DNA of 37,804 nt. Source: a virus. Lineage: Duplodnaviria; Caudoviricetes. The stretch spans positions 1-37,804 of IMG/VR virus record IMGVR_UViG_3300016657_000052. One strand, 5' to 3'. The position numbers were made by a program, and so were the translations under genes. This document shows, piece by piece, positions 1 through 26,904 of the stretch. Below the pieces are notes generated by a model that worked only from the letters and a program-made list of their open reading frames with translations, did not search any database and was not told the DNA's origin. How positions within the stretch are numbered: the first letter of the stretch is position 1; each line of letters starts with the position of its first letter.

Positions 1-896
1 CCACACCGGCAGGTACATCGGCAGTGATATAGAACTTGATGCAGGCCGTATCCAGCAGCAGTGGGTTACCATCTGCACGGAAGCCTTCGTCGACACTACC
101 ACTAAACCGTTTCTTCCCTGAAGAAGTCAGGCGTTTCCCCAACTGGCGATCCGAGTAATCAGCCAATTGACGCAGGCTGGCACTCATGTCTTCTTTATCG
201 CCGTGGTAGAAAATCTCCATGCGTTCCAGTTTCCCAGTAAAGCAGGAAGTCGGTGCTTGAGAGCCCATGACTTTCAGGGTTTCCAAACTCTCCTCATCGA
301 AGAGCTTGTTATCCGAAGTGATAGCATCTTCGATTATACATAGGATATCGCCCTCGGTTAGATCCGCACCTGGCTTAACCATACGGTGAATGTGCTGTTT
401 GAAGTCCACCACTACCGTTTTGATCTTCGTCATTTTGGTGCGAAGCAGCTCTGCAGTCTCTTTCGAAATTGCCGAGGAGTCTTCCAATGTTACCGGTGCT
501 TCCATCAGAACTACGTTGGTCAGTACACCTGCTTTCATTACCACATTGCTGGGGTTAAGCAGATCCTTCTCAAAGAAGCCATCATTGAAAGCCAGTACAT
601 CACCAGCTTTAAACTTCTCACCAACTTGCAGCCCTGTAACTACGGAGTGCGGAATAGTCAGACCACCAGCAGCACCATAGCGACGACCCAGTTCGATACC
701 CTTACGAGTACCGTCAGCATATTCAACGATAATCCCTTCATCGGAGATGGAGATCACTTTACCGTCTTGACGTGCTGTAGTACAGAACAGATCACCAGTA
801 CGATGACCAATCACTTGTTCATACCCAGTACGCACTGCTGCTTGAGTGTAACCTGCACATGGCACAACGTGCCGCTGTTGAATGCCGATAAAATTG
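1..896 (-). CDS. rpoB: Virion RNA polymerase beta subunit (phiKZ gp178-like), exon 3; continues past the window start
   Basis: Not in the ORF track because it has no start codon. Manual translation of the open minus frame gives NFIGIQQRHVVPCAGYTQAAVRTGYE...LEDSSAIS...FYITADVPAGV, matching RNAP beta motifs (TGxE, EDS, lead-in to GDK). C896 completes the GTC (Val) codon split by intron 2. Confidence 0.9.
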
Positions 897-1536
897 CCTA
901 TTGTCCACTTGATCCGTTGTGCAATGCACGCTCTATCAAGCCGGTGCGCTTCCTGGCACCCGCCCACGGCTTTCCCGTGGGAGCAGACTATATCTTCTTC
1001 CCTTAGGAAGCTTCCTGTTTCGCTTTAAAGGCTTTCGCCTACCACTTGGCGCTACGAGCCGACGCTCTAGTCGTTGAACCTTTCCCATGCCTTTCGGTTT
1101 AGGGACTTGGCTGCTATAGGAGTCCTTAGGACTCACGGTTACCCAATCCGCTTCGTTTTTAGACCATCGCGCCCATCCTTTCGGATCACGTTGTGGTGAA
1201 GCAGCTCTAAGGGACTTCCAGCAATTAAAGAAGTTATTCGACTATTTTTTCAAATAGAAGGGGCAATTTGTATAATTGAAAGTATTCGAGTATCGATGTT
1301 TGAAAAAGACAATACTTCGTCTTTGTATTTAACCTGCGTTCCGTCATCAAACATTTTCTGCCCCCGATGTTTTAATCGGTAGTTCAAGGTGGTTGCCAGC
1401 ATACCGAGAGCATCAGCGCATTCTTTAGCACTAGAGTACTCGGTAATGGACCCCGTTTTATTGTCCTTGACCAAAACAGGTTTAACGCGCAACGTATTTA
1501 AGATAGCGAACACTTTACAACAATACAAAAACATTT
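897..1536 (-). mobile_element. Group I self-splicing intron 2 (IA-like, 640 nt) in the vRNAP beta gene
   Basis: Minus-strand core elements: P AATTGCTGGAA (1226-1216), Q AGCAGCCAAG (1115-1106), R TCAACGACTA (1077-1068), S GAAGATATAGTCT (997-985), and P3 CUUCUU/AGGAAG. The 5' exon ends in U (CGGGU) and the intron ends in G (897). IGS GCCC (1264-1261) gives the U.G pair. Splicing restores KRVNFIG in frame. Confidence 0.92.
1250..1534 (-). CDS. Intron-encoded NUMOD1-like HTH DNA-binding mini-protein, probable homing endonuclease remnant without a nuclease domain
   Basis: 94 aa. KPVLVKDNKTGSITEYSSAKECADALG resembles the NUMOD1/IENR1 motif of intron endonucleases. No GIY-YIG or HNH motif is visible. 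Lies in the P1 loop of intron 2. Confidence 0.6.
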   Translation of the reverse strand: MFLYCCKVFAILNTLRVKPVLVKDNKTGSITEYSSAKECADALGMLATTLNYRLKHRGQKMFDDGTQVKYKDEVLSFSNIDTRILSIIQIAPSI

Positions 1537-2981
1537 ACCCGTTTAGGATCGTCTCGATCAGACCCAGGTGAGAGTAGTGCCGAAGTGGACAACAGAGAAG
1601 ATGTTTCAATCTCCGATGGATCTTGTGGTTGACTTACACCACGAATAGACGTAAAGGTCGGGTTAGCAGAAGTGTAGATGTTAATTGCCACATCACCACT
1701 ATCCACAGTCGATTCAGAAATCGTACCCATCTCGTTTTTATGGTAAATACGAGTACTCTTAGTCATGGAGCGACCAGAGCGACCACCTACACCACTATAG
1801 GTTACGGCTTCCACTTCTTTAAGGTTCTGTACCGGGTTGATATCCTCTACTAGCGATACCGATGGATCCTGACTAATTGTCCGCCATACTGCGTGCGGGT
1901 TCAGTTCGATGGATTGGCGCGCGCGGTCTGAGCGACTGTTGTGAGATTTAACAGCAGTCACCAGTTCGCGATAGGCGATGCCAGCGAGTCGTTCGTAACC
2001 TTTGATGCGCATGTACTGCGGATCCATTTCTTCCGGATGGTAATCCAGCAGCAACAGTTCCGAGGCCCGGATCAATAGGCCACGCCAGTCAGTGGGTTCT
2101 TTCATGTCCACCAACAGTTCAAACGTAATTGGATCAACGAACAGCTTATCGACGATATCGAGTTCGCGCAGCTGACGAACACCACCGCCTTTGATACTTT
2201 CCACCACGTTCAGGTAAACGCCAGGCTTATTGAATTCATGAGCACTGAAGTGACGCGTTGCCTCTTCCATGTCATAGAACCCACCCATCACCATAGCGGC
2301 TACACCATCTTCCCGACTAAAGATGTGGGTTTCATCAGCAAAGACTACCGGGAACTCTTCCGGTGCCAATTGCAAACGTTGCCCTGCCGGAACGACACGT
2401 GGTTGTACTTTCAGGATCTGACAAAGTTTGTCGTAGCCGTAGTAGTACGCCAGAATAATGCCAATTGGTAGCTTTTTACCAGAGACTTTCATCTCGGCAA
2501 ATTCCACCGGTCGCTTAGCCAATATGAGCCCAGCCTGTTCTTCAAACGACGGCAATTCTGAAACGATACCATTCGAAACCGAATACAGCCCGCCCAACTT
2601 GTCCATCAGCATCTTATCGCCGTTCTTATTAATAGCGACGACGATAGTGCCATCCTTCTCATGTTCCTTCAGGAACTCAGCACCAAACAAAGTTTCCCTT
2701 GCCGTGTGATCCAGCATCCAAGTCCAGCCATTGATGGTGACCGAACGGAAAGCTTGCGCTAGGACACTGTACAGACGCGGTGCTTTGAACTTGTTATCGA
2801 ACACATTGCTTGGATGGATGTCCACCACATTGGTGTTCTGTGCGTCCAGGCCAGCCGCCATCAGAGCGTTGTTAATCCATGTCGTGTAGTTGGCCGTCCG
2901 CTTATCAGACCGTTTGATAAACATCTTACCATAGTAGCTAGTCAACGCTACAGTGTCAGTATTCGTTTTACGAATGGGTAG
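1537..2981 (-). CDS. rpoB: Virion RNA polymerase beta subunit, exon 2
   Basis: Core of ORF 1515..2990: LPIRK...TSYYGK...GGRSGRSM...GTISESTVDSGDVAIN...DRDDPKRV, which are RNAP beta-like motifs. The annotated MGM start and NVFVLL tail are intron sequence. Confidence 0.9.
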
Positions 2982-3375
2982 CATCCCCATTCAAAATGGA
3001 CCATATCACCACCCTACATTCTTTGCAGAATAATCGGGCGCCTACCGTTTCGGGGTTGATTCACATCAATGCCCTACTCTACTTGCTTTAATCGTTTTAG
3101 AAACGACCACCACATTGGATAATGGTGTCATTACCCCCGTCGCCGGGGTGTAGCTTTCGATGGCCTCTGAACACACCCCATATCCCTTAGGACTTAGAGG
3201 CTTCGTTGCGTCGGTTATGTCTCTCAAGGACGTTTTCACCATGCCTGTTTGGAACATTACCCTACAGGTATTACACTGTATTTCTACGTGTAAGTGGTAG
3301 ACCATGAGATTATAGACGTTTTCCCGCAGTTAGGTAGGTTTTCTTGTACCGTATTACTACGGTACGGGGACCGTT

Positions 3376-3402
3376 ATGGTCAAGGCTACTTATTTAAAAA
3401 GA
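3376..3402. repeat. 27-bp inverted repeat, copy A (pairs with 4834-4860)
   Basis: atggtcaaggctacttatttaaaaaga versus the reverse complement of 4834-4860, atggacaaggctacttatttaaacaga: 25/27 identical. Confidence 0.9.
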
Positions 3403-4869
3403 TTTGAATAGGACTTTAAAGCCCTCAACTACTTTTTTGATCTCAATCTCTAGCTTGCGAATTGGTACATTGCTTGGTATGTTGAAGTGCTTGTATACAT
3501 CTAAGATCGATGAGAAAGCCGTAGCCTTGTCGTTGACAGCACACCAAACTTTATACTTCTTCCGGAGCCGAGAAACCAACGTATTTTCTACAGAACCATC
3601 GCTCAAGTTCAGGTATGTGAGTACGATCAAATCACCGCCATGTTGTTTGACAAGTAATTTTTTCTTTTTGTCTCTTTCCTGAACCTTAACAAAAGCATTG
3701 TGACCACCGAATATGTCCACGGGCTTGTAATGCTGCTGTCCGTTGAACTCGATGTAAATATTGAGTTCAGGTAGATAGAAATCAAATCTGAAAAGATACG
3801 GTTTAATCCGATATTCTCGGATGTAGTTGATGCCGTATTTCTTCAAGAAAATTTCAACAGCCTTTTCGCCCTTTGATTCTTGGCAGAGTTGGCAACCATT
3901 ACCCGAACTGGTGTGGGTGTTTGGTTTCTGCCAGAAAGAACCATGTTTTGGACAAACGATTTCAACTTTGTGTTTGTTGCCATGGTAAACGACTTTACTA
4001 TAGTCGTAACTATCACCATGGATTTGACGAGCATTTCTGATAAACTCTTCCGTAGATAGCTTATTTTCTTCCAAGAAACATTTCTTACACTTACAGCCAG
4101 CTAAATGCGATGCTGCTCTTTGGGTGAAGTCACCATGTTTTGGACAAGTGATCGTAACTTTAGAGGCATTAGTAACATACTCGACTTTACTATAATCGTA
4201 CTTATCTCCATGCGCTATACGTGCTTTGGAGATAAAATCAGCAAGTGATAATCTATCGGCGCCGCTCGAGCAGTTAGGGCAACCACTGCCTTTTTCAGCG
4301 TGGTCGTAAACGCTTTGCCAGAATGATCCATGTACCGGACAACCGATTTCCATCTTGTCGGTTGCATTGCCTACAGTAACTTTACTGTAGTCGTACTTGT
4401 TGTTGTGGATCTTTTTAGCCTTTTCGAGTTGCTTCTGGTTTCTTATCTGTCGAGGTATTTCATAGTCGCATTTAGGACATCCATGTTTGAAAATGAAGTG
4501 TTGTGGCGGACTTGTTACAAAGTCCCCGTGAGCAGGACATGTTATCGTCACATCAACTTCTTTTCTCACATATTTGGTTTTAAGATATCTAAACTTATCA
4601 CCAAACTTGGATCTGGATCTCTGAATGAATTCTTCAGTTGTAAGTGCTCTATTGTTGTCGGATTTGATACGACCACATTCAGGACAACCGCACCCAGTGT
4701 AGTGTGCTGTTGCTTTCTGTGAAAACATGCCGTGTAAAAGACATGTTATCTGGATCCTATCCGTAGTGACAAATGTTTCTGGTATGAGATCGTAGTTGTA
4801 TGTTTCTTGGTTTGCTGGAAACCGTGAAAACAGTCTGTTTAAATAAGTAGCCTTGTCCATTTTCTTCAC
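3394..4869 (-). CDS. Intron-encoded homing endonuclease: five CxxHG..H..CxxC zinc-finger repeats (DUF723/CapR-like) plus a C-terminal Vsr/DUF559-like (EDxHD-type) nuclease
   Basis: Repeats CLLHG, CPAHG, CPVHG, CPKHG and CPKHG are each followed by CxxC, with HGDKYDYSKVEY-type linkers. The C-terminus reads SKGE...FRFDFYLPELNIYIEFNGQQHY...RD. The true start may be ATG 4860 (MDKATYL). Confidence 0.85.
   Translation of the reverse strand: MKKMDKATYLNRLFSRFPANQETYNYDLIPETFVTTDRIQITCLLHGMFSQKATAHYTGCGCPECGRIKSDNNRALTTEEFIQRSRSKFGDKFRYLKTKYVRKEVDVTITCPAHGDFVTSPPQHFIFKHGCPKCDYEIPRQIRNQKQLEKAKKIHNNKYDYSKVTVGNATDKMEIGCPVHGSFWQSVYDHAEKGSGCPNCSSGADRLSLADFISKARIAHGDKYDYSKVEYVTNASKVTITCPKHGDFTQRAASHLAGCKCKKCFLEENKLSTEEFIRNARQIHGDSYDYSKVVYHGNKHKVEIVCPKHGSFWQKPNTHTSSGNGCQLCQESKGEKAVEIFLKKYGINYIREYRIKPYLFRFDFYLPELNIYIEFNGQQHYKPVDIFGGHNAFVKVQERDKKKKLLVKQHGGDLIVLTYLNLSDGSVENTLVSRLRKKYKVWCAVNDKATAFSSILDVYKHFNIPSNVPIRKLEIEIKKVVEGFKVLFKSF
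4834..4860. repeat. 27-bp inverted repeat, copy B (first codons of the endonuclease from ATG 4860)
   Basis: Reverse complement of 3376-3402 with 2 mismatches. Confidence 0.9.
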
Positions 4870-4903
4870 CCCATGCTAACTTCACATAGGATAAGGAATT
4901 TTA

Positions 4904-6835
4904 ATCCCCTCTTTGTTTACGGATACGATATTTCACGCCATTGGCACGGTAGGTGCCGTCTTCCTGCACTGCTGGTAGACGGAATCGAACAGTGGAGGGC
5001 GTACCAATTACTGGATTCAGTCGGATCACGACATCATCGTAACTACCAGTAACATCCTCAACTCGCTCAACGTTGTAGTCGGTAACGGCAATACCTGCCT
5101 TTTGCAAGTTTACCACCATACCAGCCACATCACGATGCAGCACTTTAGTGACGTAATGTTCATCGAAGGTCAATAGTGACGACTTCAGCATCGATTTATC
5201 AGGAACAGTGTTAATGTCCTTAATCATCGGTGTCTGATTAATAACGGTCAGTTCTTTAGGAATGGTGATGTATTCCGCCAGAGACACTTCAGCACCGTTA
5301 TAGTCCGTTACTTTGATCTTCTTGTAGGATTCAGCTAGCGCCTGATACCGTTTGTATTCTGCTGCTGACAAAGAACCTTCGTCTGCCAAACGATCAAGTA
5401 CGGCAATCACACCTTGCTCAGGTGTCTTGATTGCCGACTCTTCCATAACGACATCAAGCTTTTGTGCTGTAACAGAAGCCGTCATTTCAGTGAGCTTCTT
5501 CAGCTCAGCCTCAATCGACTCCTCATCCAGCCCTTTCTTCTCGACGTCCTCAGCCGAATCCTGCTGTTGATCTTTAAGTGAGATCTGGTTCACTACCGTG
5601 GTGGTAGTGGTACCGTCCGTGGAATCCACAGACACGTGGCCAGTTTCAACACGCTCATGTAGATCCTGTACCAGATCAGTAGCATCTTGCGCGATCTCTT
5701 CCGGGTGAGTAGCTACAGTGCCTAGTTCAAATACGCGGATAAAGAACTTCATCAGACGAATTTGAATGTCACGTGGATCCAGACCTTTCTGAATGATCGG
5801 GACATATTTCGGTTCCGGATCAGGAATAGGCAGGTCTTCGTCCTCTAGCCACATTGGAATAGCTAGGTGCTCACCGTTAGGTGTTTTACGCCAGCTATCC
5901 AGTACACCCAGATTCAATACCGTCCAGTACATGCCATTGCGGAAGATCAAGTTGATTTTGTCGTAGTGACCCGTCAACAAAGTGATCATGCTGTCATGGC
6001 GATTCTTACCCAGCCATTTCCAGAGTTCCGCTACCATAAAGCCTTGCGGTCCCGGTACCCGACGAATCAGGCTAGCACCCAGTGCTTCCATACCCACGGC
6101 CAAGGTATCGTTCTCAAACTTAATCACTGCTGATTTGTTTTCGAACAAGACTTCGTGGTTCTCGGTGGCAATCCGATAGAAGGTATTGTCAGACAAACCG
6201 AAAGACTGACCACTTAGGTAGTCTTCCATCCCCAATGCTTCTTTGGTGGACAGTTCTTCTGGCGAAATGACATTGCTGCCAGTCGACTCCATCATGCGCA
6301 GCGTGCCGATATCCGGTAGACGCGCTGGTAGAGTCATCTCCAAGAAGATATTGCGGTCCGTCTGGGTACAGAGTTTGGCAATGGTGGTCAACGTAGTGTG
6401 AAAACCGTTATACCACTTATTGTACTCGGTATAGATGTTGCGGATGTATTTGTAACGCCGCTGCATCAAAGCCATATTGACAACATAAGGTACCAGAGGA
6501 TCTCGTACGGCTTGTTCGAAGCCACGCGAACGACGATACTTCTTATTCTGAATATGGTACTTACGGATGACGTTTTCAATCATCGCGTTGTTAGGGCGAG
6601 GATTCCCGTTCAGTGCCGACAGTTTGATGATGTGTGCCATCATCACCGGACGAGTCACTCGTTTCAAGTAGAGGTCGTCCAAACCCGGCCCGTCCTCCAC
6701 TTCACTGGAGGGCTGATAAATGTACACGCTTTCACGTGGCAACATCAACCTGTCCAGTTTAGTGAAAACAGGATTCTGTAGATGCTCTACTTTTCTAACG
6801 CCAAAGCGTCGGAAAAAGTCAGCGTAGATCAACAT
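4904..6835 (-). CDS. rpoB: Virion RNA polymerase beta subunit (phiKZ gp178-like), exon 1
   Basis: 644 codons ending ...NGVKYRIRKQRGD, the RNAP beta NG..R...Q motif. The TAA that follows is the first 3 nt of intron 1. Starts 6 nt downstream of the beta' gene. Confidence 0.9.
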
Positions 6836-8458: not shown

Positions 8459-8518
8459 TGCTAAACCCTATGAACGTAATTGTATACCAGTTTCAATTTA
8501 TACGGGAGCCAAGACAAC

Positions 8519-11500
8519 ATGGCTAAGCAAAAGAAACTTCAAATTGATGACCTGGGTGCTGATGATCTTGATTTTGACATGGGCGATTTCGATTTCGATC
8601 TTAACCCTGAAAAAGATAATCGTAATCCCGCTATGCGTGCTGCATCTGCAGCATTGCTTAGCATCAAAGGTGGTGTCAGCGAACCTAGCTTTATAGCAAA
8701 ACTAGTCAAGAATGCCTTGCCGTCAGAGTTCGGCACAGCACTCGATATGACTGATCAGGCAGCTAGCGGTCTTCGGGATCTATACAATACCGCTGCTACT
8801 GAACTTAAGCCGGTTGTGCGTGATGTAAAGCGCACCACTGAAAAGCTAATGTCGGTAGTTGGCGATAAGCTTCCGGGCCCAGTGACAAAGCGTCTAACGG
8901 AGTGGAGTCGCAGCGAAACTGTAAACTCTTATAAGAAGTTTGATGCTCAGGAAAGTATGATCAATACGACCCTGGCACAGATCTTCAAGACGCAACAAGA
9001 AGTAGAACAGCTCCGGGAAAACGAACACCGTGTAAACGATGCTGTTCGGGATACCATTGAGCTGGGTCGGTTTAAAGCCAACTTCTCTCAACTGAATGAA
9101 ATTCGGATGGGGGTAACAGCGCTTACGGCATACCAACAAAATATTGGTGCTAACTTCCAACGTAAGTCATTGGAACTGCAGTACCGTCAGTATTTTGTTT
9201 TGGCTGAATTGTTGGCCAACACTAAGAACAATAATGAACGCATGCGCGATGAGATGAAGGCACTTATCGAGAATACTGATAAGCCTGAGTTCATTAAGCA
9301 AGAAAATCCAGAGTACCTGAAAATTGCACGTCGCAATCAATTCATGGGTACGATTAAGAAAAGCCTATTCGGTCGTGATGGCGATTTCATTAAGAACCTT
9401 ACTGACGATCTAGTAAAGCGTGGTAAGGAAAAGCTGGGTGAGTTTAAGAACACTGCCTTTGACATGATCGGTGCGGCCGACATGGGTCTTGACCAATACA
9501 AGATGGCACAAGATCTGGGTATGGATCAAGATGTTGACCCATATGCCGTCGGTGGTTCCATGGGCGGGATGCTGTTGTTGGACCGTTATGGTCCTAAGTT
9601 CTCTGCATGGGTAAAGAAGAAGCTGGAAGATAACCCCCAAATCATGAAGGGGGCAAATAAAACAGCTTACATCGCAGCTAACCTGCCACGTCTACTCAAA
9701 GAGTACGCTACATCTGAAACCAAAGACCCACTCAGCTGGAAGGGTAAGATCTTGGGTGGTGCTAAAGAAATCTTGGCAGCACAATTTGGTCGCTCCAGTA
9801 AGATGCAGGTGGACTCAGCAGAGACACTACAAGAAGGTAGTATCTTCACGCGTCAATCGAATCGTACTTTGAATGAAGTGATCCCTGGCTATCTTGCTAG
9901 GATCTTCCGTGAGCTGCAGGTGATGCGTACGGGTAACGATAAGATTGATCTAACTACCTTTGACCACGATGCTGGTCGGTTCAGTAAGTCGGCTGATATG
10001 AAGTCATCGATCATCGGCGGCATGTTTGGTTCATCGCAACGGCAACGTTTGGATGACCAACGTGATAACTTGATCAGCATGATTGACCCGAACGGCAAAA
10101 AGCTGTCAAAAGAAGATCGGGAAGAATTGTTCCGTTTCCTGCTTCGGGACAATATGGACCTGAACCAGATGAGTCGGGAACGTCTGTCCAATAAGAGTAC
10201 CTTTAAGGGCATGGACGCTAAGCAGGCTGAGAAGTTTGCTACCGTCTTTAGCGAACACTTTAGTGACGACGACAGCGGCAAGAAACAGCTGGACTTTAGT
10301 ATACAGGCTAACTCAATTGGCGATGGCTTGACTGTCGACTATGAACGTATTCAAAACCTAATTAACTTGGGCTATGGTTCGTTCCTGGTGGATGCAGGAC
10401 TCATTGATTCTGAAGGTAGTGTCAATGAGAAGGCCATCTTACAGATGTATCTGGATGGCGAAAAAGAGTACGCAGGTGATTACGGTCTTCCTGGGTCGCG
10501 AGGTATGGGCGGTAATGTACGCACTACTGTCACGAATGACATCGTGAGTCACGTGATCATGAATGGTCCGCGCGGTAAACAGAAAAGTCGTCGCAAAGTC
10601 AAGATGAATCGTGGTGCTAATCGCCATACACCTAAGACTGCTGGCGCCGATGCGGTTAATTCATTTGTTCCGCAAACACAAGCATCTCCAGTAGCGCCTC
10701 CACCCAGCGCTCCAGTATTGTACGCTGCCGGCGGTGCTAGCAGCGTCCAAAGCGATGCTCGTAACTTTAAAGACAATAACTGCGAATGCTTCGATGACAT
10801 TGTTAAAGCTATTGAAAAGAATAGTGTCAAAGAAGAGACCATGCAAATCCGCGATATGATCGGTGCGATTGGCATGATGTTGAATCGTGGTATCCGTACG
10901 TATACTGCCGGTGAAGCGGGTGGTGTAGGTGAGGAAGACATTCCTTGGTATGATCAGACGTTGTCTCAATTGTTCCGCAGTGGCGTACGTGGCGGTGCAC
11001 GAGCAATGGGTAAAGCATTCCAGTGGGTGGGTAAGAAACGTCAACAAGTTACTGAGCTGGCTAAAGATGCACTTGGTGCAGCTGGCGCATTAGGCAAGCA
11101 AGGTCTCGAGAAAGCAGTCAAGTTTGGTAAGTTCCTGCGTAAGCGTGGGGCTGATATCATGATTGAAGGTCGTATGTCGGCAATCATGACTGCTGACATG
11201 ATTCGGAATGGCGAATATATCGACGTCAATACTGGCAAGATTATTAAAGACATTACCGATATCACTGGCGAGGTGCGTAACCGGGCCGGTGAGATTATCA
11301 TGACGGCAGAACAAGCCAAACGGGCCTATGTTCGTGGGACGATTGGTGTTAAGCTGCTTCGTGGTTTGACCAAGTTGAAAGACGCTGCCGGTGAAATGGC
11401 AGATCGCGTTAGGGGCGGTGCAGGTATCGCACTGAGTATCGCCCGCCATGGCCTGAGTAAGGGTAAGGAATTGCTCTTTGACGCGCTGGATCGTCCGATT

Positions 11501-14500
11501 GATATTTACGTGAAAGGCGATCTTGAAACCCCAGTAATGACAGCTATTCAGATGCGAGGCGGTAATTATGTCTCGCGGACATCTGGGCGAAAAGTGACTA
11601 AACCATCGATGATTGATGGTGTTATTGAAAACCTAGATGGTGAAGTAGTGCTGTCTGAAGAGCAGATCAAGAAAGGTATTGTCGATCGTAATGGTCGGCC
11701 TATCCGAACCGGTCTTCCCAAGCTTGCCGAGTTGGTAGGTCGTGGTCTGCTTTACATGGGCGGTAAACTGCGCAATGGCCTGAAACGCATGTCTAATGCC
11801 GTGGGTTCTATCTTTGGTGGACTTGGTGATTTCTTTAAAGGTTGGTTTAGTCCTGATGGGATTATCTTCGCTGGCGGTAAGAAAATGCTTAGCGCAGTTG
11901 AAGAGATTCGTGACATCCTGAAAGAACGTCTACCTGAGCATCGTAGGATTCGTAAAGGTAGTGTGGAAGATCAGGAAAATCGCCGGAAGGAAAAGAAGGC
12001 TGAAGAAGAACGTAAGAGTGGCGATAAGTCGGAGACTGCTAAAACAGGTGGTATCCTCGCTGGTCTGAAAGGGCTCTTTAGTCTCAACAAAGATAAGGAA
12101 AAGGATGATGAAGATGAAGAAGATGGTGATAGCAAGTTTTCTATACTTGGCGACGCACTTGACTACCTTGGCGACACGAAAATCGGGCGTGGTGCTAGGA
12201 AGCTTGGTCGAGGTGCCAAGGCCGTTGCAAAAGGCGGGCTAAAAGCCGGTAAGTATGCGGGTAAGAGTGTACTTGGCGCTGGTAAGATGGGTGTCAAAGG
12301 TGCCGTGGGTGCTGGTAAGATGGGTCTTGGTCTAGCCAGTAAAGTCGGACTGGGTGCAGGGGCAAAACTTCTAGGTGGTGCAGGCGCTGCGTATGGTGCT
12401 TACGAAACCTACAATGATATCCGTGAAGGCAATTACGGTGATGCTGTCATTGATGGTGGTTTGACCCTGGCTGGTTTGGGTATGACTGGTCTAACCCTAG
12501 GTGGCCTTTCGGCTACCGGTATCATGGGTGGCGTGGCTGCAGGTATTGGCGCAGCATTGAGCGCACCTGTTCTATTAGGTGCGGCTGCCGTAGCTGCAGT
12601 TGGCTATGGTGGTTACAAGCTCTATAAGAACTTCTCCAATAAGCTAGGTTTGTTTGACAAACTTCGCTATGCTCAATACGGTTTCCTACCGGATGAGAAC
12701 GAGTACTATGCTCGTATTCGGAAATTGGAAGATGCTTGTTATGCGTCACTGGATGTGGATGGTGAACGTGCAGCCATTACCGAGAAGAACCTGAAGATTA
12801 AGGATATCGCCGATAGCTTTAATGTGGACTTGAATGATGAGAAACAAGTTACTCAATTCATCGACTGGTTCCGTAAACGCTTTAAGCCAGTATTCTTGAC
12901 TCACGTCACTGCATTGCTGAAGATTAGGCCGGAAGTAAAACTTACTGAAGTTGAAAGTAAGCTAACGCCGACTGAACAACTGAAGTACTTGCAGTTGGTG
13001 CGTTTCGGTGAAGGTCCGTACAGCTACCTCGTACCTCCTACTCCTGACATGAAAGAACTCAAGGCCAATGGTAAAACAGTGGAAGCTGTTTACCAAGAAA
13101 TTCAGGCAGAGCTTAAGAAGCGTCAGGATAAAGAAGGCAAAAAAGAAGTCGGTGCTCCGGCAAGCGCTGCGCCTGCTAAGGCGGCAGCGGCTGGTGCAGC
13201 GGCTGGGGCTGCTACGGTAGCAGCTAAGAAACCACCCTTGGCAAATACCACTCTTGCCGACACACTCAATGCCCAAACTGGTAAAGGCAGCAATGACTAC
13301 AGCACTATTGGTGCAGATGGCTTTAAAGCTACGAGTGCCTTGCTGGTAGTAGCTGGTAGTGCAGAGCCATTGGTCCAAACTGCTAATGGTCGAATTGATG
13401 CGCTGACCGCCATTCGTTTCAAAGCGTATGGTCTCATTGAAATGGAAGCCACGAAGATTCAAGCGTTGGCTGCTTTGGAAAATGAGGTACAAAAGTCAGT
13501 TAAGCTTAACTCGGCTAAGAAAGCAGAATGGTCTGGTGTAGGTGAAGAAATCGCCATGAAGATGGCGACTAGCTTTGGGGTAGACGTTACCAATAAGGCT
13601 AAGTTGGGTATGTGGTCTCGCTGGTTGCAACTGCGTTTCCTGCCTACATATTTGAACTTTGTCACACTCGTATCTTCACTGACCAATAAGTTGGATCCTG
13701 TTATCGGCACCAAAGGTATGAAAGCCGAGAATATGGTAAGCGTGGCAATGGGTATCATTGCAACTACCAACGGTCAAGGCACGCCTGTATGGGCAGTGTC
13801 GTTTAGTCCATGGCCTGGTTATACCCTTAACAAGACCATCTCGTCGACTGATGAAAACCTAAGCGGTTTGAAAAAGCAGATGAGTTCTGAGACGAAGACC
13901 GAAGAGAAGAGTAAGACAGGTAATGCCAAGGACGATCAAAAGTCGAAATTGGAAGGTACCGGTGGGGGTTCGGCTGAAGAGAAGAAAGAGCTGTCTATAA
14001 TGGACCGCGTCTCGAATGGTCTTAAGTCTGGTTGGGATGCAGTCAAGTCTGGTATTAGTAAAGCCGGTGATATGGTAAGCAATGCCGCTAGTGCAGTTAA
14101 AGATGGAGTAACTAGCGCAGGCAAAGCTGTATTGACAGAGTACTCTAATATCACGGCACCAAATGGTGCTGGTGCAGCTGCTATCAAAGCGTTCCTTGAG
14201 AATTTCGCACCAAAAACTAAAGGACCGATTAAACCAACTAGAGCTGATAGAAACAATAACCCTGGTAACGTCATCTCTAATAAATGGACAGCCGGGCTAC
14301 CTGGTTACAAAGGTAGCGACGGTCGTTTTGCTATTTTTGATACACCAGAACATGGCTTCGATGCGCAGGTGAAAGTTCTTACCGGTTACCTTAAAAAGGG
14401 TATTAATACACTTCGTACGATTATTTCGAAGTACGCGCCGGCGTTTGAGAACGATACATCAGGTTATATCAATGGTGTTGCTAAAAAGATTGGTATTGGG

Positions 14501-15196
14501 CCTGATGATTTAGTTAGACCAGAACTGCTGCCTAAAATCGCAGCAGCAATGTCGACTATTGAAGGTTTCCATGGTCTTAATCTAAGACCTGGGTCTGGCG
14601 GTGCGGCAGCACCCAAGTCTGCTTCTCAGCCAGCCAAGCCAACGACGCCTCCTGCACAGCAAGCTCAATCGGCTAAGAAAACAGCACCACCTACTTCCCA
14701 ATTGGTGGAGTCTAAACCACCAGTTGGTGCTGTTCCGGCAGCTACTACTCCGGCAGCTAAACCGCCGGTAGCAGTCGCTCCAGCCAGTACGGCAAGCAAA
14801 ACACCTGCTAAAGCACCCGCTGTGGCTGCTCCGCCGCCCGCTGCGCCATCTTTGGGTAACTCATCTGACGTTGGCTATGCTCCAGCGACGGCGCCCGTAG
14901 CGGCCGTTTCTGCGGCAAAGAGGACTAATGATGGAACTGGCCTTGGTCAAGTGACAGATCTGTTAAGTCAGTCTGTTAATGTACAAACAGCGGCACACAA
15001 GACACTTGTGAGTATTCTGAATGTACTGATGAAAGCGACCAATCTGCCATCTGTAGGGGAACAAAAAAGAGGCACCAACACGCCGGTTAATGGCAATGCC
15101 AATGAGGCACCGCCAGCAGCGCAAGGTAAGTCGATTAAACGTAACCCACAGACGCTACCTAAAGCACCCGTAGATGTGTCTAAAACGGAATTTTAA
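8519..15196 (+). CDS. Large tail-associated peptidoglycan hydrolase / tape-measure-like protein (phiKZ gp181-like)
   Basis: About 2,225 aa from ATG 8519 (GGGAG RBS upstream), divergent from beta' as in phiKZ-like phages. Has a coiled-coil N-terminus, a Gly/Ala-rich hydrophobic segment, an RNNNPGN...YAP..EN...IEG lysozyme-like domain and a Pro/Ala-rich tail. Confidence 0.8.
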   Translation: MAKQKKLQIDDLGADDLDFDMGDFDFDLNPEKDNRNPAMRAASAALLSIKGGVSEPSFIAKLVKNALPSEFGTALDMTDQAASGLRDLYNTAATELKPVVRDVKRTTEKLMSVVGDKLPGPVTKRLTEWSRSETVNSYKKFDAQESMINTTLAQIFKTQQEVEQLRENEHRVNDAVRDTIELGRFKANFSQLNEIRMGVTALTAYQQNIGANFQRKSLELQYRQYFVLAELLANTKNNNERMRDEMKALIENTDKPEFIKQENPEYLKIARRNQFMGTIKKSLFGRDGDFIKNLTDDLVKRGKEKLGEFKNTAFDMIGAADMGLDQYKMAQDLGMDQDVDPYAVGGSMGGMLLLDRYGPKFSAWVKKKLEDNPQIMKGANKTAYIAANLPRLLKEYATSETKDPLSWKGKILGGAKEILAAQFGRSSKMQVDSAETLQEGSIFTRQSNRTLNEVIPGYLARIFRELQVMRTGNDKIDLTTFDHDAGRFSKSADMKSSIIGGMFGSSQRQRLDDQRDNLISMIDPNGKKLSKEDREELFRFLLRDNMDLNQMSRERLSNKSTFKGMDAKQAEKFATVFSEHFSDDDSGKKQLDFSIQANSIGDGLTVDYERIQNLINLGYGSFLVDAGLIDSEGSVNEKAILQMYLDGEKEYAGDYGLPGSRGMGGNVRTTVTNDIVSHVIMNGPRGKQKSRRKVKMNRGANRHTPKTAGADAVNSFVPQTQASPVAPPPSAPVLYAAGGASSVQSDARNFKDNNCECFDDIVKAIEKNSVKEETMQIRDMIGAIGMMLNRGIRTYTAGEAGGVGEEDIPWYDQTLSQLFRSGVRGGARAMGKAFQWVGKKRQQVTELAKDALGAAGALGKQGLEKAVKFGKFLRKRGADIMIEGRMSAIMTADMIRNGEYIDVNTGKIIKDITDITGEVRNRAGEIIMTAEQAKRAYVRGTIGVKLLRGLTKLKDAAGEMADRVRGGAGIALSIARHGLSKGKELLFDALDRPIDIYVKGDLETPVMTAIQMRGGNYVSRTSGRKVTKPSMIDGVIENLDGEVVLSEEQIKKGIVDRNGRPIRTGLPKLAELVGRGLLYMGGKLRNGLKRMSNAVGSIFGGLGDFFKGWFSPDGIIFAGGKKMLSAVEEIRDILKERLPEHRRIRKGSVEDQENRRKEKKAEEERKSGDKSETAKTGGILAGLKGLFSLNKDKEKDDEDEEDGDSKFSILGDALDYLGDTKIGRGARKLGRGAKAVAKGGLKAGKYAGKSVLGAGKMGVKGAVGAGKMGLGLASKVGLGAGAKLLGGAGAAYGAYETYNDIREGNYGDAVIDGGLTLAGLGMTGLTLGGLSATGIMGGVAAGIGAALSAPVLLGAAAVAAVGYGGYKLYKNFSNKLGLFDKLRYAQYGFLPDENEYYARIRKLEDACYASLDVDGERAAITEKNLKIKDIADSFNVDLNDEKQVTQFIDWFRKRFKPVFLTHVTALLKIRPEVKLTEVESKLTPTEQLKYLQLVRFGEGPYSYLVPPTPDMKELKANGKTVEAVYQEIQAELKKRQDKEGKKEVGAPASAAPAKAAAAGAAAGAATVAAKKPPLANTTLADTLNAQTGKGSNDYSTIGADGFKATSALLVVAGSAEPLVQTANGRIDALTAIRFKAYGLIEMEATKIQALAALENEVQKSVKLNSAKKAEWSGVGEEIAMKMATSFGVDVTNKAKLGMWSRWLQLRFLPTYLNFVTLVSSLTNKLDPVIGTKGMKAENMVSVAMGIIATTNGQGTPVWAVSFSPWPGYTLNKTISSTDENLSGLKKQMSSETKTEEKSKTGNAKDDQKSKLEGTGGGSAEEKKELSIMDRVSNGLKSGWDAVKSGISKAGDMVSNAASAVKDGVTSAGKAVLTEYSNITAPNGAGAAAIKAFLENFAPKTKGPIKPTRADRNNNPGNVISNKWTAGLPGYKGSDGRFAIFDTPEHGFDAQVKVLTGYLKKGINTLRTIISKYAPAFENDTSGYINGVAKKIGIGPDDLVRPELLPKIAAAMSTIEGFHGLNLRPGSGGAAAPKSASQPAKPTTPPAQQAQSAKKTAPPTSQLVESKPPVGAVPAATTPAAKPPVAVAPASTASKTPAKAPAVAAPPPAAPSLGNSSDVGYAPATAPVAAVSAAKRTNDGTGLGQVTDLLSQSVNVQTAAHKTLVSILNVLMKATNLPSVGEQKRGTNTPVNGNANEAPPAAQGKSIKRNPQTLPKAPVDVSKTEF

Positions 15197-22259: not shown

Positions 22260-22943
22260 TTAGATCAAGCCCTCAGCAGATAAGTGCATAGAGGTAAGAA
22301 AAACATGTAACGTCTTAGTTGACTCAACACCAGTAGCGGCCGCCTGAATGGTATCTAGGCGTACACCACCTGTTTTGTTGATACTGTTGTTCATGGCATT
22401 GAAGCCACCCAAGTCACCACCTCGATACTTCAGGAGTTCGGCCAGTGTCTTGTCAAGGTTCAGTGCCGCCAGTACCTGTAGTTCTGGATACGAAAGCTTA
22501 CTGCCTTTTGATGCACCAGTTGGTTGACCAGTGAAATGATCAACGGAATGGTTGTCTTCAGGAATTTGGATCTTCTTAACCAAGTGCTGTGCTTGTCGAC
22601 GTAGCGGTAGTTTAATGACCAGATATGGAATCGGGGTCATGTAGCCAGGGCGTCCCTCAGTGGGTCCGAACACAATACGTTGGAAAAAATTGTGACCTAG
22701 CTCTTCCGCAACTTTGAAGTTACGCTTGATGTCGAGCTTGGGTCCGTGTAGGTTTGGCGCAATGATCGATAGGATCTGCTTACCATCTTTCAGATCGTGC
22801 ATGAACTGTTCAAACTGAGCATCATTCATGCGCGGGAATACGTTCTTCTCGTAATAGAGGCGATTGTCAGAGCCGGGTAACAGCTTATCAATGTATTCGA
22901 GGATAAACTGTTCGGCCTCTTTTCTCTTAGCGGGTGTAGTCAT
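22260..22943 (-). CDS. Virion RNA polymerase beta subunit, C-terminal fragment (phiKZ gp149-like)
   Basis: 227 aa. LRRQAQHLVKK...FTGQPTGASKGSKLSYPE...ELLKYRGGD matches the C-terminal conserved region of RNAP beta (TQQP.GG...GQRFGEME..E.LT.KSDD). Confidence 0.85.
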   Translation of the reverse strand: MTTPAKRKEAEQFILEYIDKLLPGSDNRLYYEKNVFPRMNDAQFEQFMHDLKDGKQILSIIAPNLHGPKLDIKRNFKVAEELGHNFFQRIVFGPTEGRPGYMTPIPYLVIKLPLRRQAQHLVKKIQIPEDNHSVDHFTGQPTGASKGSKLSYPELQVLAALNLDKTLAELLKYRGGDLGGFNAMNNSINKTGGVRLDTIQAAATGVESTKTLHVFLTSMHLSAEGLI

Positions 22944-25606: not shown

Positions 25607-26824
25607 CTATGAAGTGGCGTACTCTTTGTGAAGTTGTTCAGCAATACGAATTACTGCATTGACAGAAGCCCCAACAGGGTAGTTATTAAACTTTGTACCA
25701 AGCGCATCCATAGGGTTTTTCTCACGCCCTAATCGCGCAGCAGTGGCGATCTGGGCACGCATGCTATGAATTCCTAACTTTGAATCCATGGTTTGGAAAG
25801 ACTCTCCCCCAGCCACAGAACACAGTAGTTGATGTTCAGTTGAACTTGGAAGGACGATCGTGGGTATGCCATGCATGGCTATATGACTAGTCAATGAAGG
25901 TCCGCCATTACCAACAAACAAATCCATCCTAGGTAATAGGTTGGCCATACTAACTGGATGATTAGTTAGTTTGATTTGTGACGGTTTAAACAATGCGCGC
26001 AGTACACCTAGATACCGATCATCAACATTGATGCTACAAATCACATCGGCATTCAGACTAGCCAAAGCAGTAAGTAGCGTACTGGTAGCTTCATTCTTAG
26101 CATCGATATGGCAGAAGATCTTCTTATCATCAGAGTCTTTCCACTGCATGATGCTACCAGCACTACGGTGATAAATAGGACCAATGTATTCACGTTTAGT
26201 AATTACTGAGAATGGATCAAGATCCTCCCAAGTAGTGTGTACATCGTAATCAGTGAAGATGTCCCGTATATCAATCAACCGGAAAGTACCAGTTGCCGCT
26301 AGTGCATCATTGATGTTCTTAAGTAATGTCCGCTCAGCATAATGTAATCGGTCAGGATGGACATCGTCATGTTGCAGATATTTCGGTAGCGGTTCAACCA
26401 GTGGTGGCAATGTAAAGCTGCTACCTATATGGAAGTACGGAATTGTTTTTGCACCATACGACATCAGCGCCAAGGCCAAAGTAGGAGAGTGGTCCAAGAC
26501 AACCACATCGGGTTTGGTCTTCTTGATTAACTGGTGCCATTTACGAATAGCAATCCCTAATGCCTGACTATCCGAAAGTCCTGATTCCAATAGTAGTTCT
26601 GCATAAGAACAGGGCGGCTTATTCCTATGTCCCTTAGTGCGAATCTTTGGGGCAAGATGCCACTCTACCGATTCGTCAATAAAACAATGCTCAATAGGCT
26701 CTAGTTTCCGAGAGGTGAAGGTCACATGGTGACCATTATTTAACAGGCCGTCGATAACTGCTCCGCAGCGCGAGGCGTATTCGTAGCCTTTACCCAGCTC
26801 GGAGGCGATCAATATTCTTGCCAT
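25607..26824 (-). CDS. GT-B fold glycosyltransferase (GT1/GT28-like), with divergent motifs
   Basis: 405 aa from ATG 26824. MARILIASELGKG...GHHVTF, KPDVVVLDHSP and LLPRMDLFVGNGG...GIPTIVLP...EH are classic GT-B elements. Confidence 0.8.
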   Translation of the reverse strand: MARILIASELGKGYEYASRCGAVIDGLLNNGHHVTFTSRKLEPIEHCFIDESVEWHLAPKIRTKGHRNKPPCSYAELLLESGLSDSQALGIAIRKWHQLIKKTKPDVVVLDHSPTLALALMSYGAKTIPYFHIGSSFTLPPLVEPLPKYLQHDDVHPDRLHYAERTLLKNINDALAATGTFRLIDIRDIFTDYDVHTTWEDLDPFSVITKREYIGPIYHRSAGSIMQWKDSDDKKIFCHIDAKNEATSTLLTALASLNADVICSINVDDRYLGVLRALFKPSQIKLTNHPVSMANLLPRMDLFVGNGGPSLTSHIAMHGIPTIVLPSSTEHQLLCSVAGGESFQTMDSKLGIHSMRAQIATAARLGREKNPMDALGTKFNNYPVGASVNAVIRIAEQLHKEYATS

Positions 26825-26860
26825 TCTTTTATATCGCTCTAAAACGTTAATAAAAAAGAC

Positions 26861-26904
26861 TACTGTGACTGGGTATCCAATTAAGGACCCAGTCACAGTA
26901 TGTC
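26861..26904. repeat. Hairpin related to 25546-25592
   Basis: TACTGTGACTGGGT-loop-ACCCAGTCACAGTA-tgtc, a 14-bp perfect stem. Confidence 0.7.

Follow-up and report, generated by a model that had tools for sequence, protein, structure and literature searches.

A phiKZ-like jumbo phage gene for virion RNA polymerase beta, probably interrupted by two unrelated group I introns

The 37,804-nucleotide (nt) stretch of IMG/VR virus record IMGVR_UViG_3300016657_000052 (Duplodnaviria; Caudoviricetes), hereafter the window, raises the question of whether its gene for the beta subunit of a virion RNA polymerase (RNAP), which appears as two open reading frames (ORFs) and an unannotated frame, is broken, naturally divided, or one gene from which two introns are removed. 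An earlier note, made from the letters alone, had joined the three pieces into one RNAP beta gene split by two group I introns. We come to the same view, with a probability of roughly 0.88, namely that this is the virion RNAP beta gene of a phiKZ-like jumbo phage, holding two unrelated and likely self-splicing group I introns, one of them likely mobile and the other left with a nuclease remnant. The parts of the gene are as follows, the site labels A to D used here and below being our own naming.

6835-4904, minus strand: exon 1 of virion RNAP beta, codons 1-644, matching PHROG 3148 positions 1-574 (expect value, E, 2e-121)
4903-2982, minus strand: intron 1, probable group I, phase 0, site A, 1,922 nt
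2981-1537, minus strand: exon 2, 1,445 nt, matching PHROG 3148 positions 575-1056
1536-897, minus strand: intron 2, probable group I, phase 2, site C, 640 nt
896-1, minus strand: exon 3, open at the contig end, matching PHROG 3148 positions 1055-1351

The three exon frames match the PHROG 3148 profile (1424 positions) in order, and the removal of 4903-2982 and 1536-897 leaves a frame that is free of stops over at least 1,424 codons and that aligns in one piece, at residues 1-1424, with gp40 of the intronless Burkholderia phage FLC9 (45.9% identity). The joined frame also aligns with RP12 and with phiKZ gp178, in the latter case with 38.9% identity over residues 489-1424, and exon 2 is matched by 312 phage records. 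The identity of the gene as the phiKZ gp178-type virion RNAP beta, N-terminal subunit, is thus supported. The joining of the two ORFs and the frame and the virion RNAP identity, both claimed in the earlier note, are borne out by PHROG 3148, by FLC9 gp40, by the gene order and by the alignment with gp178 that the note had proposed as a check, and homologues are continuous across both junctions. The profile of the joined protein family matches bacterial RpoB, without giving a placement of site A on it, and a search of the PDB by sequence with FLC9 gp40 returned no match. Since the gene runs off the contig, three exons are a minimum; the contig end at position 1 lies 5 nt before a fourth intron site, D, which is filled in three of the viral loci compared below (L005, L041 and L084) and in phage AgentSmith.

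Both junctions were returned, exactly where the earlier note had placed them, by a blind scan of all pairs of cuts having a U ahead of the intron and a G at its end, with FLC9 as the sole reference for scoring; junctions lacking these two bases were judged by eye, and none of them gives a frame with both features. The terminal G of the introns stands at 2982 and 897, and a U before and a G last are found in 40 of the 40 introns that we mapped in RNAP beta genes, a count to be read with the fact that these bases were a precondition of the automatic junction search. The codon right after exon 1, the first of intron 1, is a stop, so that the unspliced message would yield a 644-amino-acid (aa) fragment; removal of intron 1 alone would give 1,132 aa, stopping ahead of a conserved region, and skipping of exon 2 would shift the frame. 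Both introns therefore need to be removed for the full protein, as the earlier note had argued, and virion production would need both splicing reactions: in phiKZ, loss of gp178 blocks capsid assembly (PMC11620839), and the packaging of the present RNAP in the virion is inferred from such homologues.

That the gene is instead broken or naturally split, with separate proteins made from its parts and the inserts being free-standing nuclease elements, we consider very improbable. RNAP subunits of jumbo phages are naturally split (PMC7598289), and an in-frame ATG upstream of exon 2 opens an ORF of 491 aa; however, this ATG lies inside the tail of intron 1, intron 2 breaks the frame within the most conserved motif, the majority of relatives are continuous at both junctions, and both inserts hold complete ribozyme cores with covarying guides. 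An assembly artefact comes to mind with any single metagenomic contig, here a 37.8-kb fragment that is about 14% complete, but we take it to be refuted, because the intron-exon borders are bridged by contigs of other runs and introns occupy the same sites in many other phages. These other runs, X1 to X4, are DNA runs of freshwater and drinking-water metagenomes: contigs of X2 and X3 bridge the border of intron 1 with exon 2, and one X2 contig bridges that of intron 2 with exon 3, one of the bridging contigs coming from a second study. An intron-less join was not found in the DNA contigs of the four runs.

That both inserts are group I introns, predicted to be self-splicing, is most likely, and the Rfam family RF00028 aligns over its full model with each of them, at 2970-3397 in intron 1 (E 5e-8, 43.6 bits) and at 963-1278 in intron 2 (E 1.5e-8, 45.3 bits), with no further match elsewhere in the window. 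These full-length alignments take in the P3-P7 pseudoknot core and P4-P6 with the P, Q, R and S elements. Extra helices between P7 and P3 would mark subgroup IA; after the P7 5' strand, insertions of about 110 nt and 48 nt are seen in the alignment of the two introns. The introns of relatives at the same sites score from 37.8 to 77.5 bits. The helices that the earlier note had named (P2, P3 and P7) are recovered as well, with P2, P3, P4 and P7 paired in intron 1 and P2, P7, P8, P9 and P9.1 in intron 2. Absent from that note are the 488-aa nuclease gene and its family, the 94-aa remnant, the position of both ORFs in the P1 loops, the lack of P9 in intron 1 and the closeness of intron 2 to the phiPA3 site. 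The parts of intron 1 are these:

3371-3366, minus strand: internal guide, pairing with the last six exon 1 bases (4909-4904), with a U-G pair at the splice site
3365-2999, minus strand: ribozyme core, with P2 at 3365-3346, P3 at 3338-3333/3046-3041, P4 at 3328-3325/3210-3207 and P7 at 3165-3161/3003-2999
2998-2972, minus strand: 3' end lacking P9, with P9.0 at 2997-2996/2984-2983 and a predicted 7-bp helix of the tail (2992-2986) with exon 2 (2978-2972)
4860-3394, minus strand: putative homing endonuclease gene, intact, 488 aa, in the P1 loop (Pfam PF05265)
4898-4862, minus strand: predicted hairpin that would cover the ribosome-binding site of the nuclease gene (folding energy -14.6 kcal/mol; z -3.4 relative to shuffled sequences)

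Site A falls, by alignment, between residues 594 and 595 of phiKZ gp178, and the guide comes only after the ORF, so that the whole 488-aa ORF lies in the P1 loop. Among 12 site-A introns with four exon variants, all 60 Watson-Crick cells of P1 are paired, against a shuffled mean of 50.8 (p 5e-5), a result weakened by guide positions having been chosen partly by complementarity; in the 10 site-A introns that could be aligned, the guide falls in a single alignment column. A guide at the 5' end of intron 1 or of intron 2 was ruled out, there being no U-G pair there. In the same 10 introns, 96.5% of 283 cells of P2, P3, P4 and P7 are paired, against 29-42% when the strands are slid, and P3, P4 and P7 are paired in all 10.

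Only 17 nt are left past P7 in intron 1, too short for a P9 hairpin, and the same region measures 14-17 nt in 10 of the 12 site-A introns, the introns of the other sites, B, C and D, having 68-89 nt there (one site-D intron could not be measured). A local hairpin at 2999-2987 was rejected as the P9 of intron 1: it borrows a base of P7, and the tail by itself reaches a folding energy of just -0.9 kcal/mol. With the exon, the tail folds at -11.1 kcal/mol, and site-A tails pair with their own exon at a mean of -10.0 kcal/mol, compared with -7.2 kcal/mol for shuffled partners (p < 5e-5), permutation tests here and elsewhere taking no account of how the introns are related; at sites B, C and D the test gave no such effect. 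P9.0 covaries among 10 site-A introns (U-A in six, C-G in four), and the 3' splice site sits in the loop of the predicted tail-exon helix, so that P9.0 and this helix would make a small pseudoknot around the terminal G.

It is possible, if doubtful, that the introns are real and that this helix nevertheless stands outside the splicing fold, either as a relic of a duplicated target or as a restraint on the 3' splice site or on translation. In this pairing the terminal G lies buried within a loop of 7 nt, both partners change at just two of its seven pairs, the helix is broken or gapped in some introns (those of L041 and L048), and two Vibrio site-A introns have a hairpin of their own after P7, all of which count against a part for the helix in splicing. 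On the other hand, the pairs that do change are third positions of Pro and Ile codons, changes that the intron tail follows with compensating bases; 10 of the 12 site-A introns have no room for another P9, and the adjacent P9.0 covaries perfectly. We accordingly retain, as the preferred reading, a 3' splice site that would be presented by P9.0 and the tail-exon helix in place of P9.

The 488-aa protein combines five zinc-finger repeats (CxxHG, DUF723/CapR-like) with a nuclease domain of EDxHD/Vsr-like type, with E332, D360, E371 and H377 invariant in 60 of its at least 120 relatives, and with its gene intact intron 1 is probably still mobile. Its structure model has a predicted local distance difference test score (pLDDT) of 88.8, and by Foldseek the catalytic domain resembles I-Bth0305I (3r3p; template modelling score, TM, 0.73 by target) and also Vsr; a PDB sequence search returned no match. 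When viral contigs were scanned with the alignment of the nuclease, chiefly distant family members were found. Dozens of relatives of about 485 aa, with 46-76% identity over the full length, are probably site-A nucleases, so that site A may be far commoner than the fetched loci show.

The hairpin over the ribosome-binding site of this gene is formed by the first 43 nt of intron 1, and its 5' arm holds, at 4888-4885, a TATG like the late-promoter motif of phiKZ (PMC7598289). Of 18 nuclease leaders, 9 have a TATG 20-27 nt ahead of the start codon, where 2.3 would be expected (two duplicates and one start-less ORF were excluded). A late transcript started internally would be without the 5' arm of the hairpin, and the ribosome-binding site would therefore be freed. 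A hairpin over the ribosome-binding site is likewise described for I-TevI of T4 (PMC3073962).

Intron 2 is unrelated to intron 1, and its parts are as follows:

1534-1250, minus strand: 94-aa remnant in the P1 loop, the last NUMOD-like DNA-binding repeat of a gp210-type HNH nuclease
1264-1261, minus strand: internal guide, pairing with exon bases 1540-1537
1257-943, minus strand: ribozyme core, with P2 at 1257-1242, P7 at 1072-1068/990-986, P8 at 1010-997, P9 at 981-963 and P9.1 at 960-943

Its P9 and P9.1 are normal, its P3 and P4 rest on the Rfam alignment, and in seven site-C introns all 21 cells of P1 are paired (shuffled mean 14.7, p 0.001). It splits, after the second base, the codon behind a conserved Arg that corresponds to R557 of Thermus RpoB in the profile alignment, and site C lies 11 nt downstream of the site of the phage phiPA3 gp210 intron, here site B. 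The 94-aa remnant corresponds to residues 271-336 of gp210 (E 6e-10) and also matches other site-B nucleases at their C-termini, with a weak match to Pfam PF22083; an HNH nuclease domain was not found in it, just the last DNA-binding repeat being left. The best BLAST match of the intron 2 core is the phiPA3 intron, and intron 2 is likely stranded with this remnant. Short matches to the intron 2 core (window 1052-1079 and 1204-1260) also occur in other contigs of runs X1-X4, which suggests related introns elsewhere in these samples.

To see how these sites are occupied, we took 113 confirmed relatives in viral contigs and kept the best 80, which amounted to 77 loci (63 clusters at 95%). Of these 77, 9 have an intron at site A, 11 at site B, 6 at site C and at least 3 at site D (coverage of D was checked for part of the loci), with 57 loci empty and 5 holding two or more introns. 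The junctions of phiPA3, phiKp_32 and L047/L053, and the double introns of L041 and L067, were set by hand from the sequence. The pair of the window, A with C, recurs in L048; L067 has A, B and C, and L041 all four, and in both of these an 11-nt exon stands between sites B and C (L041:7766-7776, L067:8555-8565), flanked by introns that are both Rfam-positive, in joined frames that stay open. Of the named isolates, Vibrio phages pir03 and Yong XC31 carry an intron at site A; phiPA3, 201phi2-1, EL, 2050HW and ParM-25 carry one at site B, and AgentSmith one at site D. In phiKp_32 (L009:6562-7995) and Aeromonas phage PS2 (L017:6770-7160) the intron stands 1 nt ahead of site C, in phase 1. The cores of these last two group together, and in the phiKp_32 intron an HNH-type ORF is intact.

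The cores at site A fall into a single group (92/96), and those of B, C and D are mixed. On a quick exon 2 protein tree of 65 rows, the 10 that are A-positive need 9 changes, 6 of them forced, which is no fewer than with shuffled labels, and the site-A introns make a series from 388-563 nt without an ORF, through 1,321 nt with a broken ORF, to 1,491-1,950 nt with an intact one. This scatter and size series fit homing and decay, with the counterpoint that the patchiness of site A on the host tree fits repeated loss equally. L039 and L040 have near-identical exon 2 proteins and only one of them a site-B intron; similar sister pairs at site A are L018/L019, L038/L037/L046 and L049/L048. An X2 contig (window 2830-3158, depth 2.9) shows 8 differences from the window, all in exon 2 at 2838-2940 and two of them recurring in run X4, and no difference over the 218 nt that follow, 41 of them in the exon and 177 in the intron, a pattern that is a weak hint of recent transfer.

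A further explanation, which we find unlikely, is that intron 2 is retained as a shield, breaking the target of gp210-type nucleases from a site 11 nt away from theirs. The gp210 target comprises the Asp-Asp codons just upstream of site C (PMC11620839), and site B is the most frequently filled of the sites (11/77), mainly with intact HNH-type ORFs. However, L041 and L067 have B and C introns together, so that a filled site C does not bar a site-B intron.

The mechanism that we propose is as follows. Each guide would pair with its own 5' exon across an ORF-filled loop, of 1.5 kb in intron 1, and guanosine-driven splicing would then restore the reading frame, the 3' splice site of intron 1 being presented by P9.0 and the helix of the tail with exon 2, which would replace P9. 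The nuclease would be kept off in the long transcript, where the hairpin covers its ribosome-binding site, and would be made from the internal late TATG start; T4 I-TevI is reportedly late in its timing too. It would cut the intron-less site A alleles of co-infecting relatives, which would lead to spread of the intron by homing or, as with phiPA3 gp210, to damage to a rival. Intron 2 would stand for the decay phase of the homing cycle, and would persist because only its precise removal is tolerated.

Several points weigh against this account. The case is built on DNA sequence and on relatives, and for this phage splicing, cleavage and expression are inferred; in phiKZ itself, predicted introns showed no splicing in one long-read study (PMC10914365). 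Both introns fall below the RF00028 gathering score of 50 bits, which is a search cut-off and no biological criterion, and intron 2 shows no evident P9.0 and a P1 of just four contiguous pairs. For the nuclease, the best Foldseek E-value belonged to a mitoribosomal protein with a poor fit, that of I-Bth0305I being just 1.5e-3, and for its late expression, TATG is missing in 9 of the 18 leaders, phiPA3 included.

The closest published system is the gp211/gp210/gp209 intron of phiPA3 (Birkholz et al. 2024, PMC11620839), a group I intron that also lies in a host gene of the phiKZ gp178 family and has its ORF directly after the 5' splice site, as do both introns of the window. It is the single intron of its gene, whereas here there are two, and it lies right after an Asp-Asp pair: intron 2, in phase 2, is 11 nt downstream of it, and intron 1 lies some 480 codons upstream, with a nuclease family unrelated to gp210. 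The gp273/274 intron of 201phi2-1 is in the same gene, is given as a join in GenBank, and is spliced in vivo according to two spliced reads (PMC11512511); it differs from those of the window in being single, short and at the phiPA3 site. Vibrio phages pir03 and Yong XC31 have unannotated site-A introns with the guide logic, nuclease family and intron group of intron 1, in a gene annotated as separate ORFs, and differ from it in their short hairpin after P7; the word "intron" does not occur in the pir03 paper.

As for the nuclease, a large and previously unrecognised outgroup of EDxHD/Vsr nucleases with CapR-like repeats has been described, in which 3-5 zinc-finger-like repeats precede an EDxHD/Vsr-like domain, as in the 488-aa protein (PMC12350094). 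That article, which shows no activity for these CapR/DUF723 homing endonucleases, places them in introns, both of group II and of group I, that interrupt the virion RNAP gene for the N-terminal part of beta-prime, whereas here the site is A of the beta gene. I-Bth0305I (3r3p) and Vsr appear, from the structure model, to share the fold of the C-terminal catalytic domain, at 18% identity; the 488-aa nuclease differs from them in its DNA-binding modules and in an extra 50-residue C-terminal domain. Single phage genes with two or three group I introns are known from Twort (PMC3073962) and from the polymerase and terminase genes of Bastillevirinae (PMC11878797), in both cases in other genes and hosts; the exon skipping reported for Twort (PMC3073962) would be out of frame here.

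Introns in the RNAP beta gene are therefore already published, in phiPA3 and 201phi2-1, as are multi-intron phage genes and the nuclease family. In the literature that we searched, which covered few subscription papers, we came across no account of sites A, C and D, nor of a 3' end without P9 or an exon of 11 nt. We see an even chance that the wider picture is correct, in which intron 1 belongs to a hitherto undescribed P9-less group I lineage with a last helix supplied by the exon, its nuclease is a second, unrelated weapon against the essential gene that phiPA3 gp210 also attacks, that gene is a battleground of four sites, and the 11-base exon is spliced by some phages. For phage competition, the published picture is of one site and one nuclease in this gene, against four sites and two nuclease families here, and the question of weapon versus selfish element becomes testable beyond phiPA3. 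If the exon-dependent 3' end of the ribozyme is true, it ties homing success to the exon sequence of the recipient, silent codon positions of the host gene form part of a ribozyme, and the helix with exon codons is a natural, compact means of selecting a 3' splice site. Should the phage form a nucleus, the place and time of splicing would become a question for messages whose long-range P1 has to close over a 1.5-kb ORF. The introns of T4 are said to depend on translation. For annotation, the RNAP beta gene is called as separate ORFs in the records of pir03, Yong XC31, EL and phiKp_32.

Beyond the interrupted gene, the neighbourhood is that of phiKZ-like jumbo phages. The gene next upstream, in the position of phiKZ gp180 and ahead of RNAP beta as in phiPA3 and 201phi2-1, is uninterrupted:

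8458-6842, minus strand: upstream RNAP subunit gene with the DFDGD catalytic motif (PHROG 2986)

In many relatives, group I introns lie in or at this upstream gene (L005:966-2665, L041:2852-3572, L067:3224-3553, L084:3854-4164, L007:1993-2314, L013:3798-4204 and L014:4989-5383). Of the 24 frames compared with the PHROGs, none received the name chimallin, on a 37.8-kb fragment and with no directed search. A large tail protein gene of 2,238 aa with a C-terminal lytic domain (8480-15196, plus strand; PHROGs 3201, 873 and 7182) and an uninterrupted small RNAP subunit gene (22260-22943, minus strand; PHROG 3233) follow, as does an ORF of 405-429 aa (25607-26896, minus strand) that has no PHROG match and looks, by eye, like a glycosyltransferase. 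At the other end, an X1 contig reaches 11.3 kb past position 1.

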